Of a DNA stretch of 64,000 nt, positions 39,882 to 45,140 are shown piece by piece (positions within the stretch are counted from its first letter, which is position 1; every line of letters starts with the position of its first letter). Source of the DNA: Escherichia coli (lineage in GTDB: Bacteria; Pseudomonadota; Gammaproteobacteria; Enterobacterales; Enterobacteriaceae); assembly GCF_046105845.1 (NCBI RefSeq), contig NZ_CP151004.1. The stretch is one strand, 5' to 3'. The position numbers were made by a program, and so were the translations under genes. Under the pieces are notes generated by a model. That model searched no databases, had not been told where the DNA came from, and worked only from the letters and a program-made list of their open reading frames with translations.

Positions 39882-40844
39882 TTATTGCACGAAGCGCGAG
39901 GTCACGTACTGGCTGTAATCATTCGCTACAGCCGGGACTTTGCCCTGCTCTTTCAAAAACTGCGCGGTGTCGATGATCGCTTTGTTCACCGGTCCGGTCA
40001 GTTCTGCCGTTTGCTGCTGCGGCGTCAGATAGGTATTCCCCTTCACCAGCCCCGGAACGTCACCTTCAGGTACGCCGCTTAAACGCGCCAGCTTGCTGAT
40101 GTTTTCCGGCTGTTTCAGCCACGCGTCTGGGTTAGCAATGTACGGTTGCTGAGCATCGATGGCGCTTTTAGCGAACGCTTTCACGACCTCTGGATGTTTC
40201 TCGGCAAAATCTTTGCGCACCACCCAGACGTCCAGCGTCGGCGCACCCCACTGCCCGACCTGTTCAGAATCGGTCAGCACCTTGCCGTCTTTTTCCAGGG
40301 CGTTAACCGCCGGTGCCCAGACATAAGCACCATCAATGTCTCCCCGTTGCCATGCGGCGATAATCGCGGGTGGCTGCAGGTTCACTATCTCCACTTGTCC
40401 GGGTTTTATACCCCAGTGTTTCAGCGCCGCCAGCAGGCTGTAGTGGGTGGTGGAGATAAACGGTACGGCGATGCGTTTGCCAATGAGATCTTCCGGTTTG
40501 CTGATAGTTTTCTTTACCACCAGCGCTTCGGAGTTACCCAGTTTTGACGCCAGTAAGAAGACTTCAATCGGCACCTGTTGGCTGGCTGCCACCGCTAATG
40601 GGCTGGAACCGAGGTTACCGATTTGGACATCGCCTGAAGCCAGCGCCCGCACGATGCTGGCTCCGCTGTCAAACTTACGCCAGTCCACCGTCGCCCCGCT
40701 CTCTTTAGCAAAGGTGTTATCAGCCTGAGCCACTTTCGCCGGTTCAGCGGAGGTTTGATAGGCCACGGTGACGTTCACCGCCTGTGCCTGAAAAGCGATG
40801 AATGCCAGTGCGGCAAGAAGTGTGTTACGCGATGAAATTGCCAT
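39882..40844 (-). CDS. tauA: Taurine ABC transporter periplasmic binding protein TauA
   Basis: 320 aa with signal peptide MAISSRNTLLAALAFIAFQAQA. Confidence 0.94.
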   Translation of the reverse strand: MAISSRNTLLAALAFIAFQAQAVNVTVAYQTSAEPAKVAQADNTFAKESGATVDWRKFDSGASIVRALASGDVQIGNLGSSPLAVAASQQVPIEVFLLASKLGNSEALVVKKTISKPEDLIGKRIAVPFISTTHYSLLAALKHWGIKPGQVEIVNLQPPAIIAAWQRGDIDGAYVWAPAVNALEKDGKVLTDSEQVGQWGAPTLDVWVVRKDFAEKHPEVVKAFAKSAIDAQQPYIANPDAWLKQPENISKLARLSGVPEGDVPGLVKGNTYLTPQQQTAELTGPVNKAIIDTAQFLKEQGKVPAVANDYSQYVTSRFVQ

Positions 40845-41450
40845 GATTGTCTGCTCCCCTGTCTTGTTATGGGAGCAGTATTCGCGGACAAAAGAATTTG
40901 ATAAAAGAATTAATCATTATGGGCAATACGTTTTTATTCTTAGCAAAAAAATGGCAAACGATAGATTAGTTATGCATGTATCTACCATGTTAAGACTTAG
41001 TAAGCTGTGATTCAGCATGGATGTGAATAAATAATCAAATAGTTCGTTTTCTTATTTACCATTGACCACATGAATGAATAGATGAGCCATCAAGAAACCA
41101 TTCAGATTTTATATAAAACAGCCCTCATACAATGTCAGTATTTTATATATCATTCACTTAATGAATAAATATAAAATAGTTCACAAAGATATTTTTTAAA
41201 TGCAATTAATTGACAAACTAAATCACATCTAAATACAATATATAAAACAAAATTACCATGTATGCTAAGCAAACAAACATTTAACATATGATATACATAA
41301 ATAAAATCTGTCTCCCTAAAGCCCCGTAGGTTATTAAATAACCATTATTTTTAAGGGTTATTTTTTTTAACAGTATGCTTTTTTAGCATCTGAGGATGTT
41401 GCAGTTGGCTACTGTTCTGCGTTCGCCAGGTTTTCTGCATAATAATTAAA

Positions 41451-42137
41451 ATGGAGTGTCATGAATTGGATAAGGTTTTAACTTCTGCGTTGCATTCTTC
41501 CGAGAAAAAGAGGAAAGGTATCCTTGCGATTGGCGCACATCCTGACGATATAGAATTAGGTTGTGGCGCATCGCTTGCTCGACTTGCGAAAAAGGGAATT
41601 TATATCGCAGCCGTTGTCATGACTTCCGGTGATTCTGGTGTAAATGATATTATTGACCGCCATGAAGAATCACGCGAAGCATTAATGATGTTGGGTTGCG
41701 CGCAAACAATACATCTTAATTTTGCCGACACTCGTACCCATTTGCAGCTCAATGATATGATTTCCGCCCTGGAAGACATCATTAAAAATCAAATTCCTTC
41801 TGATGTTGAAATCATGCGGGTATATACCATGCATGATGCCGACCGCCATCAGGATCATCTTGCTGTTTATCAAGCTTCAATGGTTGCCTGCCGAACTATT
41901 CCACAAATTCTCGGCTACGAAACCCCAAGCACCTGGCTTTCATTTATGCCTCAGGTTTTTGAATCCGTTAAAGAAGAATATTTCACAGTCAAACTTGCTG
42001 CATTAAAAAAACATAAAAGCCAGGAACGACGCGATTATATGCGTCATGATCGCCTGCGTGCAGTTGCACAATTTCGCGGGCAACAGGTCAATAGCGATCT
42101 GGGTGAAGGCTTTGTAATTCATAAAATGATTCTTTGA
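41451..42137 (+). CDS. yaiS: PIG-L/LmbE-family deacetylase YaiS; exact start uncertain
   Basis: AHPDD(x)E(x)GCG motif (ILAIGAHPDDIELGCGAS) typical of LmbE-like N-acetylglucosaminyl deacetylases; the 228-aa ORF may over-extend the 5' end relative to the shorter K-12 annotation. Confidence 0.8.
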   Translation: MECHELDKVLTSALHSSEKKRKGILAIGAHPDDIELGCGASLARLAKKGIYIAAVVMTSGDSGVNDIIDRHEESREALMMLGCAQTIHLNFADTRTHLQLNDMISALEDIIKNQIPSDVEIMRVYTMHDADRHQDHLAVYQASMVACRTIPQILGYETPSTWLSFMPQVFESVKEEYFTVKLAALKKHKSQERRDYMRHDRLRAVAQFRGQQVNSDLGEGFVIHKMIL

Positions 42138-42146
42138 GCAAATTGC

Positions 42147-43343
42147 ATGAAAACCTGGATATTTATCTGTATGTCCATAGCAATGTTGCTATGGTTTTTA
42201 AGTACGCTAAAACGTAAACCCAGTCAAAAGAAAGGCTGTATTGACGCAATTATACCTGCTTATAACGAAGGCCCGTGTCTGGCACAGTCACTGGATAATC
42301 TGCTGCGTAACCCTTATTTTTGCCGGGTAATTTGCGTAAACGACGGCTCCACGGACAATACCGAAGCGGTCATGGAGGAAGTCAAACGCAAATGGGGCGA
42401 CCGCTTTGTTGCCGTCACGCAAAAAAATACCGGTAAAGGTGGTGCGCTGATGAATGGCCTCAATTACGCCACCTGCGACCAGGTTTTTTTAAGTGATGCC
42501 GACACCTATGTTCCGCCCGATCAAGACGGAATGGGCTATATGCTGGCAGAAATTGAGCGCGGTGCCGATGCCGTAGGCGGCATTCCCTCTACTGCGTTGA
42601 AAGGCGCGGGTCTGTTACCACACATCCGCGCGACCGTAAAGTTGCCGATGATTGTTATGAAGCGCACGCTACAGCAGCTCGTGGGCGGCGCACCGTTTAT
42701 TATCAGCGGTGCCTGCGGGATGTTCCGTACTGATGTATTGCGTAAGTTCGGTTTCTCAGATCGTACTAAAGTCGAAGACCTTGATCTCACCTGGACATTG
42801 GTGGCAAACGGCTACCGTATTCGGCAGGCGAATCGCTGCATCGTATACCCACAGGAATGCAACAGCCCGCGTGAGGAGTGGCGTCGCTGGCGGCGTTGGA
42901 TTGTGGGCTACGCGGTCTGTATGCGCCTGCATAAAAGACTTTTATTTAGCCGCTTCGGTATCTTCAGTATATTTCCTATGCTGTTGGTTGTGCTTTATGG
43001 CGTTGGGATTTATCTCACTACCTGGTTTAATGAATTCATCACCACCGGGCCGCATGGTGTGGTGTTGGCAATGTTTCCGCTTATCTGGGTCGGCGTAGTT
43101 TGTGTTATTGGTGCTTTTAGCGCCTGGTTTCATCGTTGCTGGTTGTTGGTGCCTTTAGCGCCGCTTTCCGTTGTGTATGTATTATTAGCTTATGCCATCT
43201 GGATTATTTATGGACTTATTGCCTTTTTTACTGGACGCGAACCTCAGCGCGACAAACCCACCCGCTATTCCGCACTGGTGGAAGCGTCAACCGCTTATTC
43301 CCAACCTTCTGCTACAGGAACTGAAAAACTATCTGAAGCTTAA
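42147..43343 (+). CDS. yaiP: Family-2 glycosyltransferase YaiP, membrane-anchored
   Basis: 398 aa; N-terminal transmembrane segment, GT-A motifs (DGSTDNT ... SDADTY), C-terminal transmembrane helices. Confidence 0.88.
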   Translation: MKTWIFICMSIAMLLWFLSTLKRKPSQKKGCIDAIIPAYNEGPCLAQSLDNLLRNPYFCRVICVNDGSTDNTEAVMEEVKRKWGDRFVAVTQKNTGKGGALMNGLNYATCDQVFLSDADTYVPPDQDGMGYMLAEIERGADAVGGIPSTALKGAGLLPHIRATVKLPMIVMKRTLQQLVGGAPFIISGACGMFRTDVLRKFGFSDRTKVEDLDLTWTLVANGYRIRQANRCIVYPQECNSPREEWRRWRRWIVGYAVCMRLHKRLLFSRFGIFSIFPMLLVVLYGVGIYLTTWFNEFITTGPHGVVLAMFPLIWVGVVCVIGAFSAWFHRCWLLVPLAPLSVVYVLLAYAIWIIYGLIAFFTGREPQRDKPTRYSALVEASTAYSQPSATGTEKLSEA

Positions 43344-43902
43344 TGTTAAAGAGAAAAACATTCAGATTGCAGACCAGGTAATTATTGATGAAACTGCAGG
43401 TGAAGTTGTTATCGGCGCGAATACCCGTATTTGTCATGGTGCCGTTATTCAGGGTCCGGTAGTGATTGGCGCAAACTGCCTGATAGGTAATTATGCGTTT
43501 ATTCGTCCTGGCACAATAATCAGCAATGGCGTAAAAATTGGTTTTGCCACCGAAATTAAAAATGCGGTTATTGAAGCGGAAGCAACGATTGGTCCGCAAT
43601 GCTTTATCGCCGACTCGGTAGTTGCAAACCAGGCATATTTGGGCGCACAAGTACGTACCAGTAATCATCGTCTGGATGAACAGCCCGTGTCTGTTAGAAC
43701 TCCAGAGGGAATTATCGCTACCGGATGCGATAAATTAGGTTGTTATATCGGGCAGCGTTCACGCCTTGGCGTACAAGTTATTATTTTGCCTGGGCGAATT
43801 ATTTCCCCGAACACGCAACTTGGCCCGCGCGTGATTGTAGAACGTAATTTACCTCCCGGAACTTATTCACTCCGACAAGAACTTATCCGTACAGGAGATT
43901 AA
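43192..43902 (+). CDS. yaiX: Hexapeptide-repeat (LbH) acyltransferase YaiX, intact; start uncertain
   Basis: Left-handed beta-helix repeats (VIGANTRICHGAVIQGPVVIGANCLIGNYAFI...); longest frame overlaps yaiP 3' end by 152 nt with no in-frame ATG after the overlap; K-12 yaiX is an IS2-disrupted pseudogene. Confidence 0.7.
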   Translation: MPSGLFMDLLPFLLDANLSATNPPAIPHWWKRQPLIPNLLLQELKNYLKLNVKEKNIQIADQVIIDETAGEVVIGANTRICHGAVIQGPVVIGANCLIGNYAFIRPGTIISNGVKIGFATEIKNAVIEAEATIGPQCFIADSVVANQAYLGAQVRTSNHRLDEQPVSVRTPEGIIATGCDKLGCYIGQRSRLGVQVIILPGRIISPNTQLGPRVIVERNLPPGTYSLRQELIRTGD

Positions 43903-43903
43903 A

Positions 43904-44677
43904 ATGATAAAACGGACGTTATTAGCGGCGGTCATTTTTAGCGCATTGCCCGCTTATGCCGGGTTAACTTCCATTACCGCGGGCTACGATTTTACCGATT
44001 ATTCTGGCGATCATGGCAACCGTAATTTAGCGTATGCTGAACTGGTGGCGAAAGTTGAAAACGCAACGCTGCTTTTTAATCTTTCCCAGGGGCGTCGTGA
44101 TTATGAAACTGAACATTTCAATGCCACTCGCGGTCAGGGTGCGGTCTGGTATAAATGGAATAACTGGCTGACAACCCGAACGGGTATTGCCTTTGCGGAT
44201 AATACGCCGGTCTTTGCCCGCCAGGATTTTCGTCAGGATATTAACCTGGCACTGTTGCCAAAAACGCTTTTCACGACCGGTTATCGCTACACGAAATATT
44301 ACGATGATGTCGAAGTCGATGCCTGGCAAGGCGGCGTATCACTCTATACTGGCCCGGTGATCACCAGCTATCGCTATACCCATTATGACTCCAGCGATGC
44401 AGGTGGTAGTTACAGCAATATGATTTCCGTGCGTCTGAATGACCCGCGCGGCACTGGTTATACGCAACTATGGCTAAGCCGCGGAACAGGTGCTTACACC
44501 TATGACTGGACGCCAGAAACACGCTACGGCAGCATGAAGAGCGTCAGTTTGCAACGTATTCAACCGCTGACTGAGCAACTTAATCTCGGGCTGACGGCAG
44601 GTAAAGTGTGGTACGACACCCCAACCGATGATTATAACGGTCTGCAACTTGCAGCCCATCTGACCTGGAAATTCTGA
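43904..44677 (+). CDS. yaiO: Outer-membrane beta-barrel protein YaiO
   Basis: 257 aa with signal peptide MIKRTLLAAVIFSALPAYA and C-terminal ...HLTWKF beta-barrel signature. Confidence 0.9.
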   Translation: MIKRTLLAAVIFSALPAYAGLTSITAGYDFTDYSGDHGNRNLAYAELVAKVENATLLFNLSQGRRDYETEHFNATRGQGAVWYKWNNWLTTRTGIAFADNTPVFARQDFRQDINLALLPKTLFTTGYRYTKYYDDVEVDAWQGGVSLYTGPVITSYRYTHYDSSDAGGSYSNMISVRLNDPRGTGYTQLWLSRGTGAYTYDWTPETRYGSMKSVSLQRIQPLTEQLNLGLTAGKVWYDTPTDDYNGLQLAAHLTWKF

Positions 44678-44789
44678 TTCCTTCTGCCGCCCGCTATCCG
44701 GGGCGGCCTTCCCTGCCGATTAGCCCCACCCCCTTTCCTCTTTGTTTTCCGACCACATTCACCGGATAAATTTTATTCTCCAGTGTTAT

Positions 44790-44838
44790 ATACTATAGGG
44801 GGGTATGTATTGACATATAGAATACCCCCCTATAGTAT
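44790..44838 (+). promoter_or_regulatory. frmRAB promoter/operator: inverted repeat with G6/C6 tracts overlapping -35/-10
   Basis: atactataggggggtat (44790-44806) and atacccccctatagtat (44822-44838) form a 17-nt inverted repeat flanking ttgaca; lies 27 nt upstream of frmR ATG; consistent with an FrmR (CsoR/RcnR-family) operator. Confidence 0.6.
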
Positions 44839-44864
44839 ATTGCATGCAGATGATGAGGTGCGAA

Positions 44865-45140
44865 ATGCCCAGTACTCCGGAAGAGAAGAAAAAGGTCCTT
44901 ACTCGAGTTCGTCGTATTCGGGGGCAAATTGATGCTCTGGAACGGTCGCTGGAGGGTGATGCCGAATGCCGTGCCATACTCCAACAGATCGCTGCCGTTC
45001 GGGGCGCGGCTAACGGGCTGATGGCAGAAGTGCTTGAAAGCCATATCCGGGAAACGTTTGACCGAAATGACTGCTACAGCCGCGAAGTCAGCCAATCCGT
45101 TGACGACACTATTGAACTGGTTCGTGCCTATCTTAAATAG
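44865..45140 (+). CDS. frmR: Formaldehyde-responsive repressor FrmR
   Basis: ORF 44844..45140; known 91-aa FrmR starts [31 protein letters not shown]... at 44865. Confidence 0.92.

Follow-up and report, generated by a model that had tools for sequence, protein, structure and literature searches.

A mobile four-gene yai cassette of Escherichia coli that may build and export a surface glycan

What does the yaiS-yaiP-yaiX-yaiO locus of Escherichia coli make, and do its four genes work together? We addressed this question in a 64,000-nucleotide (nt) stretch of E. coli DNA (contig NZ_CP151004.1, assembly GCF_046105845.1), referred to below as the window. An initial annotation, made from the sequence alone, had described four consecutive genes of the same orientation as a single glycan- or glycolipid-type module for which no product is known. 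The latter statement still holds: even in E. coli, the best-studied bacterium, this four-gene unit is without an assigned product. An open reading frame (ORF) scan recovers the four genes where that annotation had placed them, between tauA and frmR and all of them undisrupted, and profile searches bear out the four protein families it had named:

41466..42137, plus strand: yaiS, a predicted cytoplasmic de-N-acetylase of the PIG-L/LmbE type (profiles, motifs, homologue alignment)
42147..43343, plus strand: yaiP, an integral-membrane family-2 glycosyltransferase (GT2), probably of the synthase type, 398 amino acids (aa) (profiles, AlphaFold2, Foldseek, hhalign)
43210..43902, plus strand: yaiX, a left-handed beta-helix protein, 230 aa from the most likely start, with the ORF open from 43192
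43904..44677, plus strand: yaiO, an outer-membrane protein of 257 aa, with a predicted 14-stranded beta-barrel behind a signal peptide of about 19 residues

The chromosomal context is the tau/yai/frm region of E. coli, and the G+C content of the four genes is 43-50%, compared with 56% in tauA and 51% in the window overall. Stops and starts had been described as nearly abutting, which is correct for yaiS-yaiP (a gap of 9 nt) and for yaiX-yaiO (1 nt, with an AGGAG Shine-Dalgarno sequence 8 nt ahead of the yaiO ATG) but not for yaiP and yaiX, whose frames overlap by 134 nt from ATG 43210, or by 23 nt with the RefSeq-style yaiX start.

Family and fold evidence points to a GlcNAc (N-acetylglucosamine)-derived surface glycoconjugate plus an outer-membrane channel. 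The answer that we favour, at roughly even odds (about 50%), is that the locus is a self-contained, horizontally mobile cassette that makes a GlcNAc-derived adhesive polysaccharide and exposes it on the surface through a minimal synthase-dependent route. The four genes appear to act as one functional module, a view supported by their fixed order, their abutting or overlapping frames, purifying selection and a single predicted upstream promoter. None of the four proteins was matched by PADLOC (0/4), indicating that the module is not a known anti-phage system.

Scanning a genome collection with a YaiP alignment retrieved at least 8 orthologous loci; the distribution figures given here are examples, and E. 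coli itself was not among the matches listed. Among those matches a wide gap separates the YaiP orthologues (at least 60% identity) from the next GT2 proteins (at most 32%). In every complete orthologous locus examined, the PIG-L, GT2, beta-helix and YaiO genes follow one another on one strand with abutting or overlapping frames, and the flanks are unrelated; because the order recurs in each of these loci, the arrangement is not due to chance. The junctions are conserved as well (14-nt or 1-4-nt), with an overlap of exactly 14 nt between the beta-helix gene and the GT2 stop in six non-enteric loci. The cassette was found in a Salmonella island that also encodes a PapB-type regulator, CcdAB and an integrase, next to hemB in Citrobacter braakii, downstream of rpoBC in Acinetobacter, in Stenotrophomonas (where yaiO is present but uncalled), in the locus designated L011, and in metagenomic contigs with an MvaT-type neighbour. 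Further loci come from Lysobacter, Superficieibacter, and metagenome-assembled genomes (MAGs) of Pseudomonadota and Alphaproteobacteria. The order is kept down to 24-35% YaiO identity, and on the short contigs that carry the most distant YaiO proteins (24-31% identity) an overlapping beta-helix gene and an upstream ORF stand directly before yaiO.

Several observations indicate that the cassette moves as a unit. Two complete copies reside on separate contigs of C. braakii ATCC 51113, their YaiP proteins being 81% and 79% identical to that of the window, which points to independent acquisitions. In PLSDB, 49 records contain the cassette, 33 of them predicted to be conjugative, with the qualification that 3 of the records are mislabelled chromosomes. 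At 4.8-4.9 Mb, these three "plasmids" are clearly chromosomes of E. coli; one of them, NZ_CP134663.1, comes from a gull and encodes a YaiP 99.7% identical to that of the window. On contigs of enterotoxigenic E. coli (ETEC) the cassette lies between eltAB (plus the heat-stable toxin ST) and an AraC-regulated chaperone-usher fimbrial operon; on the cytotoxic necrotizing factor 2 (CNF2) Vir plasmid NZ_AP024124.1 it is 4 kb from cnf2; on plasmid NZ_CP041427.1 of a Shiga toxin-producing E. coli from pig it is flanked by insertion sequences (IS) and near fimbriae; and on Salmonella diarizonae plasmid CP075145.1 it sits between Pef-like fimbriae and cdtB. IncI and IncF plasmids carry it too, and the plasmid copies are intact but divergent. 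Flanking regulators differ by host (PapB-type, PerC, a single-domain response regulator, a LuxR-type response regulator paired with a histidine kinase, and an MvaT-type protein resembling H-NS), and the cassette may plug into host-local regulation. All four genes are under purifying selection, also in comparisons within E. coli: the ratio of nonsynonymous to synonymous substitution rates (dN/dS) against the Vir-plasmid copy ranges from 0.08 to 0.23 (0.08 for yaiP, 0.19 for yaiX and 0.23 for yaiO), and the comparison with Citrobacter gives 0.03-0.13 for each of the four. Taken together, the values span 0.03-0.25.

The protein most informative about the chemistry is YaiP, in which the motifs NDGSTD, DAD, VEDLDLTW and RWRRW are invariant across 26 homologues. 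A Pfam scan recognises GT2-type domains only, including a weak match to GT21 (E 1e-7). The best NCBIfam match is the PgaC/IcaA family TIGR03937, at 102.4 bits against a cut-off of 422.3 and over residues 22-286; the NodC family TIGR04242 reaches 29.4 bits against a cut-off of 550, over residues 24-125 only, and the ArnC family 34 bits against 529. A profile built from the 26 homologues aligns with E. coli PgaC at an hhalign probability of 99.4% (E 8e-22, 30% identity over the catalytic domain), with NDGSTD lining up, DAD facing DGD, VEDLDLTW facing TEDIDISW and RWRRW facing QRLRW. Searching PDB sequences with YaiP alone returned generic GT-A domains only, and a fold search was required. The AlphaFold2 model (predicted local distance difference test score, pLDDT, 79.8; predicted TM-score, pTM, 0.79) has a single helix at the N-terminus and a GT-A domain; RWRRW lies on an interface helix, and three to four membrane helices follow at the C-terminus. 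The best solved matches to this model in a Foldseek search of the PDB are hyaluronan synthases (TM-score 0.61-0.64), together with the minimal synthase-like PcManGT, whereas GtrB, ArnC and dolichyl-phosphate mannose synthase (DPMS) score 0.33-0.38. In AFDB50, outside its own family, the model matches PgaC (0.72), IcaA (0.67) and archaeal GT2 proteins. Sequence and model thus support the assignment of YaiP as a probable synthase-type GT2 of the PgaC/hyaluronan-synthase kind rather than a lipid-carrier transferase of the GtrB/ArnC type. The membrane helices carry invariant W314, H329, Y344, Y349 and W352. Past the last of them, the tail GxEPxRDKPxRY (residues 363-374, 43233-43268) is likewise invariant, its conservation equalling that of the catalytic core; it may serve to dock YaiS or YaiX, or in regulation.

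In YaiS the motifs GAHPDD and DRHQDH are invariant, as is a C-terminal block (H.SQ..R.Y..FRG..E.F) across the family, and PF02585 is recorded on all orthologues. The closest solved relatives are archaeal diacetylchitobiose deacetylases, which align over the full length (E 1e-12), followed by LmbE and BshB. YaiS falls under the cut-offs of the BshB1, BshB2, MshB and Mca equivalogs, indicating that it is none of those enzymes. Inspection of YaiS and YaiX revealed neither a signal peptide nor a hydrophobic N-terminus, and both belong to families of cytoplasmic enzymes. Translation of yaiS most likely begins at TTG 41466 (223 aa), judging from a GGAG 9 nt upstream and from the alignment with the GTG of K-12. 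The ATG at 41451 (228 aa) was rejected as a start; in K-12 the frame of the upstream ATG is closed by TAA. The gene is a mosaic with a junction near 41745: its first 280 nt (41466-41745) are 80% identical to K-12 and to E. coli SCU-102, the remainder (41746-42137) is 99-100% identical to both, and the upstream spacer is another allele as well. A like pattern is seen in the Vir-plasmid copy, whose YaiS has 63% protein identity and whose other three gene products have 94-98%.

The hexapeptide acyltransferase proposed for yaiX proved to be only partly secure. The beta-helix fold stands: YaiX aligns over 157 residues with the glucosamine-1-phosphate N-acetyltransferase domain of Sulfolobus ST0452 (E 1e-22), and GlmU is homologous too. 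The chemistry is not secure, the canonical catalytic His of GlmU being absent. Equivalents of GlmU R333, K351 and N377, which we take to be sugar-phosphate ligands (Arg333, Lys351, Asn377), are invariant in the family. The most likely start is ATG 43210, because a segment M-D/E-x4-LP...N...WW is then common to the Salmonella homologue and L011; non-enteric homologues start with MWW. The RefSeq-style start (193 aa) was judged too short, as it removes the conserved WW segment; the 230-aa and 193-aa forms both occur exactly in E. coli. Enteric YaiP has a 25-residue C-terminal extension, which accounts for the 134-nt dual-frame stretch (43210-43343).

YaiO scores 184.3 bits against TIGR04390/PF19413 (cut-off 32), with the full profile covered. 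Its model (pLDDT 93.7) is a plug-less 14-stranded barrel with very short loops and without a FadL hatch domain, and its fold resembles the oligosaccharide channels CymA and OmpG in structure comparison. Strand periodicity, the phase of which is ambiguous in several strands, would place 11 positive and 8 negative residues in the lumen, together with many Tyr, Thr, Gly and Arg residues. The free-standing YaiO family is small, with 118 clusters at 50% identity among 1.84 billion representatives. In one published paper yaiO is regarded as an "orphan" gene of E. coli and used for PCR identification; E. coli alleles of YaiO range down to 53% identity.

These assignments can be assembled into a pathway. 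YaiP, in the inner membrane, would use a UDP-sugar to polymerise an N-acyl-hexosamine at its cytoplasmic face and thread the chain across the membrane, in the manner of PgaC and the hyaluronan synthases. YaiS and YaiX would act in the cytoplasm, since they lack export signals, and before translocation. As cytoplasmic enzymes could not reach a chain that is being threaded out, we infer that they would edit the activated sugar or a primer: YaiS, by family a zinc enzyme, may deacetylate a GlcNAc unit, and YaiX may re-acylate or otherwise handle the resulting glucosamine phosphate or nucleotide, so that the polymer would carry free or non-acetyl amines. The retained sugar-phosphate ligands of YaiX fit such precursor editing. 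The plug-less barrel of YaiO would be the route of the chain over the outer membrane, and expression of the cassette would make cells clump. A polymer is favoured because YaiP is nearest to PgaC by sequence and to the hyaluronan synthases by structure, because a translocating synthase explains the absence of a separate inner-membrane exporter, and because the barrel of YaiO belongs to the size class that passes oligosaccharides. The sole phenotype on record is that repair of yaiX in K-12 leads to YaiP-dependent vegetative clumping (PMC3531124), which fits a surface adhesin. The position of plasmid copies beside adhesins and toxins provides a context that we also count in favour of an adhesive glycan.

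Several points weigh against this pathway. To date no product has been detected. The membrane helices of YaiP number only about four or five, and its polymer channel is hypothetical; its motif is RxxRW instead of QxxRW; the GT21 match, although weak, remains; and beta-monoglucosyl-diacylglycerol synthases in AFDB match the model as well as PgaC does (TM-score 0.73). PIG-L enzymes usually deacetylate a single GlcNAc on an aglycone, not polymers, and a threaded polymer would be out of reach of YaiS and YaiX, which leaves their precursor-editing role conjectural. In 13 members of the YaiX family, the position of the catalytic His (GlmU H363, ST0452 H308) is occupied by an invariant Pro135, and there is no invariant His anywhere in the protein. 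Neither a cyclic di-GMP (c-di-GMP) receptor, nor a tetratricopeptide repeat (TPR) scaffold, nor a periplasmic modifying enzyme is recognised in the cassette, unlike in all characterised synthase-dependent systems. Finally, there is no clear terminator after yaiO.

How the unit is expressed in E. coli, and in what state it is found there, bears on whether it functions at all. The features that surround or overlap the four genes are:

39882-40844, minus strand: tauA
40845..41450, strand not applicable: the AT-rich divergent spacer between tauA and yaiS, 606 bp
41189..41253, plus strand: candidate yaiS promoter island (consensus scan, strain alignment)
42003..42122, minus strand: antisense small ORF corresponding to ykiC of K-12, 39 aa with one substitution, overlapping the 3' end of yaiS
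44686..44707, plus strand: G+C-rich hairpin, 9 nt past the yaiO stop, with no U-tract
44844 onward, plus strand: frmR

The very AT-rich region of about 600 bp that had been noticed upstream of the module is thus real, at 606 bp and 29.7% G+C. Alignment of the window, K-12 and SCU-102 indicates that this spacer varies strongly among E. coli strains with the exception of the 65-nt promoter island, which is near-identical in all three while its flanks diverge. The island contains a candidate promoter about 220 nt upstream of the yaiS start, with a -35 element TTGACA (41210-41215), 18-nt spacing and a -10 element TACAAT (41234-41239), matching 11/12 of the consensus. TTGACA-18-TACAAT has been assigned to yaiS by in vitro binding of RNA polymerase holoenzyme, and genomic SELEX (systematic evolution of ligands by exponential enrichment) places an H-NS mark on the K-12 spacer (PMC3946193), which has also been catalogued as a "promoter island" (PMC3661553). 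H-NS binding in the strain of the window, whose spacer differs outside the island, is extrapolated from these K-12 data. A consensus scan found no internal near-consensus promoter in the module; the few internal promoter-like and terminator-like matches do not exceed those in shuffled sequence, and none is a convincing terminator. The best explanation is that in E. coli the unit has one strong candidate sigma-70 promoter in an AT-rich, probably H-NS-bound spacer and would normally be silent. A search of 40700-44900 against Rfam, with E values up to 1 allowed, returned only meaningless miRNA matches, with no riboswitch or known RNA in the leader of about 220 nt. The hairpin past yaiO may mark the end of the unit. 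It was dropped as a terminator candidate, as its folding energy (-16.8 kcal/mol, z-score -1.3) is not significant and the terminator scan missed it.

The chromosomal locus is variable and often damaged. Exact copies of the window proteins occur on numerous E. coli contigs (660 for YaiP, 887 for YaiO, 756 for YaiX and 73 for the 223-aa YaiS). The cassette finds no match in about 495 of 5426 complete E. coli genomes (about 9%), and it has been reported absent from O157:H7. IS1, IS2 or IS3 insertions occur in sampled genomes, and yaiS of SCU-102 is annotated as a pseudogene. The comparison with K-12 agrees with the description of yaiX as intact in the window and split by IS2 in K-12. It further revealed that a CAG codon of yaiS (window 42021-42023) is a TAG amber in K-12, which cuts YaiS to 185 aa and removes its invariant C-terminal block; the window, with CAG kept and yaiX unsplit, has neither of the two K-12 lesions. 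The 61-mer spanning the amber is exact in 355 complete genomes, K-12 laboratory strains being at the top among the matches listed, and its CAG version is exact in 2212. The change between CAG and amber is synonymous in the frame of ykiC, an entry of the annotated small-ORF table (PMC6001520). An antisense RNA within yaiP has also been mentioned (PMC4666370).

With these data, three other explanations can be weighed against an adhesive polysaccharide. The main rival, possible though in our judgement on the improbable side, is that the cassette makes a small N-acyl-glucosamine glycolipid or lipo-oligosaccharide and no long polymer: at the cytoplasmic face, YaiP would extend a membrane lipid or primer by one GlcNAc or a few, YaiS would deacetylate them, YaiX would N-acylate the amine, and YaiO would give the amphiphile access to the outer membrane or passage across it. 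NodC/NodB/NodA and PIG-A/PIG-L/PIG-W follow such a scheme, as do the steps of GlcNAc transfer, deacetylation and N-acylation in teicoplanin. This hypothesis explains the cytoplasmic YaiS and YaiX better than a polymer does, as a lipid or short oligosaccharide at the membrane face would be a natural substrate for them, and it suits the best solved relatives of YaiS, which deacetylate the non-reducing GlcNAc of chitobiose, the reaction of NodB. The helices of YaiP (1+3 to 1+4) resemble the topology of NodC, and its RxxRW variant is also that of glucosylceramide synthase; the GT21 and monoglucosyl-diacylglycerol synthase matches fall on the same side. Yet by sequence YaiP is far nearer to PgaC/IcaA (102 bits) than to NodC (29 bits, in the N-terminal part only), and the solved structures closest to it are processive hyaluronan synthases. 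An amphiphile would also have no encoded route to YaiO, as the cassette contains neither an inner-membrane exporter or flippase (such as a NodIJ-like ABC transporter) nor a periplasmic carrier; YaiO is without the FadL hatch domain, and the lack of a recognisable catalytic base in YaiX counts here too.

That the chromosomal locus of E. coli is a relic, silenced, often broken and idle in this strain, where its intactness would be incidental, seems unlikely to us. The two K-12 lesions, the SCU-102 pseudogene, the IS insertions, the genomes without the locus (O157:H7 reportedly among them), and the published H-NS binding and AT-rich promoter island would all be expected of a decaying locus. Against decay, dN/dS is well under 1 for all four genes, within E. 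coli as well, the amber is confined to 355 genomes, exact window proteins recur on hundreds of contigs, the promoter island is kept inside a fast-evolving spacer, and conjugative virulence plasmids have repeatedly captured intact copies. We regard it as very improbable that the four genes are unrelated neighbours, with YaiP a bactoprenol-phosphate sugar transferase for lipopolysaccharide or O-antigen, YaiO a general porin, and YaiS and YaiX metabolic enzymes. The weak matches of the N-terminal GT-A domain of YaiP to ArnC, GtrB-like proteins and DPMS are what such a view can draw on. They are offset by the low TM-scores to the same proteins, by the absence of a GT-C partner (GtrC- or ArnT-like) adjoining the cassette, by strict co-occurrence with fixed order and conserved junctions over distant taxa and plasmids, and by the tiny YaiO family, which stands beside a beta-helix gene in every locus examined.

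Downstream of the cassette, a 13-nt perfect inverted repeat (TATAGGGGGGTAT ... ATACCCCCCTATA) at 44794-44834 overlaps a promoter-like site of frmR (TTGACA-17-TAGTAT, 44810-44838) and is presumably the FrmR operator.

Already known are the gene annotations and the clumping phenotype, which was mentioned in 2012; we found no published description of the cassette, of where it occurs or of its copies on plasmids, and no paper naming a product. What emerges is a well-delimited cassette, strongly conserved in Gammaproteobacteria and present in at least one Alphaproteobacteria MAG as well, which has been captured repeatedly by conjugative plasmids and there adjoins enterotoxins, CNF2, CdtB and fimbrial adhesins. 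A broader proposal, which we hold to be doubtful in its entirety, is that it represents an unrecognised pathway in which a PgaC/hyaluronan synthase-like enzyme with cytoplasmic PIG-L and beta-helix partners yields an N-acyl-glucosamine lipo-oligosaccharide or an unusually N-acylated hexosamine polymer, with a dedicated minimal 14-stranded export pore and spread by conjugative plasmids, serving as a colonisation or aggregation factor in ETEC, necrotoxigenic E. coli (NTEC), Salmonella and Acinetobacter.

Among known systems, the synthase-dependent ones (Bcs, Pga, Alg, Pel) share with YaiP, on the basis of its sequence, the D, DxD, ED and R(Q)xxRW motifs and a transmembrane region. They differ in that a Pfam scan of YaiP and the Pfam labels of the cassette genes reveal no recognised c-di-GMP module (a cryptic site, for example in the YaiP tail GxEPxRDKPxRY, may conceivably be present), in that the cassette has no periplasmic polymer-modifying enzyme, YaiS and YaiX being predicted to be cytoplasmic, and in that their barrels have 16-18 strands against a predicted 14 in YaiO, for which no TPR scaffold is recognised in the cassette. 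PgaABCD and IcaADBC, which make poly-N-acetylglucosamine (PNAG), are alike in combining a synthase, a de-N-acetylase and an outer-membrane barrel, and aggregation is the phenotype expected of them. YaiP is, however, far under the PgaC cut-off, no cassette examined has a PgaD-like gene, and the Pga/Ica deacetylase is a periplasmic lipoprotein of carbohydrate esterase family 4 (CE4), whereas the Yai enzyme is a cytoplasmic PIG-L protein accompanied by an extra beta-helix protein. Hyaluronan synthases of class I (HAS from Chlorella virus and Xenopus) and the minimal cellulose-synthase-like PcManGT resemble YaiP structurally at 14-19% identity. In these enzymes a single polypeptide polymerises and translocates a GlcNAc-containing chain, and HAS needs neither a dedicated outer-membrane protein nor tailoring enzymes; the membrane helices of YaiP are fewer, and its motif reads RxxRW instead of QxxRW.

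NodC-NodB-NodA offers a parallel in GlcNAc synthesis by a GT2, de-N-acetylation and N-acylation, all on the cytoplasmic side. No Yai protein belongs to a Nod family, and only the GT2 superfamily fold is common to YaiP and NodC: NodB is a CE4 enzyme and NodA has a fold of its own. The Yai cassette is without a NodIJ exporter but has an outer-membrane barrel. With GlmU and ST0452, YaiX shares the beta-helix and the sugar-phosphate-binding Arg, Lys and Asn; it has Pro in place of the catalytic His, is without the nucleotidyltransferase domain, and carries a WW segment of its own at the N-terminus. NfrA/NfrB, the phage N4 receptor, is likewise a cryptic pairing of a GT2 synthase with an outer-membrane protein in E. 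coli and makes an N-acetyl-hexosamine polymer; NfrB carries a c-di-GMP-binding domain, NfrA is a large protein combining TPR and barrel, and neither PIG-L nor beta-helix partners belong to that system. If the cassette does make an adhesive hexosamine glycan, it would join cellulose, PNAG, alginate, Pel and Nfr as a new architecture of minimal kind, one in which tailoring is cytoplasmic rather than periplasmic and the pore dispenses with a scaffold domain, and in pathogens of animals and humans it would be a candidate for a colonisation factor.

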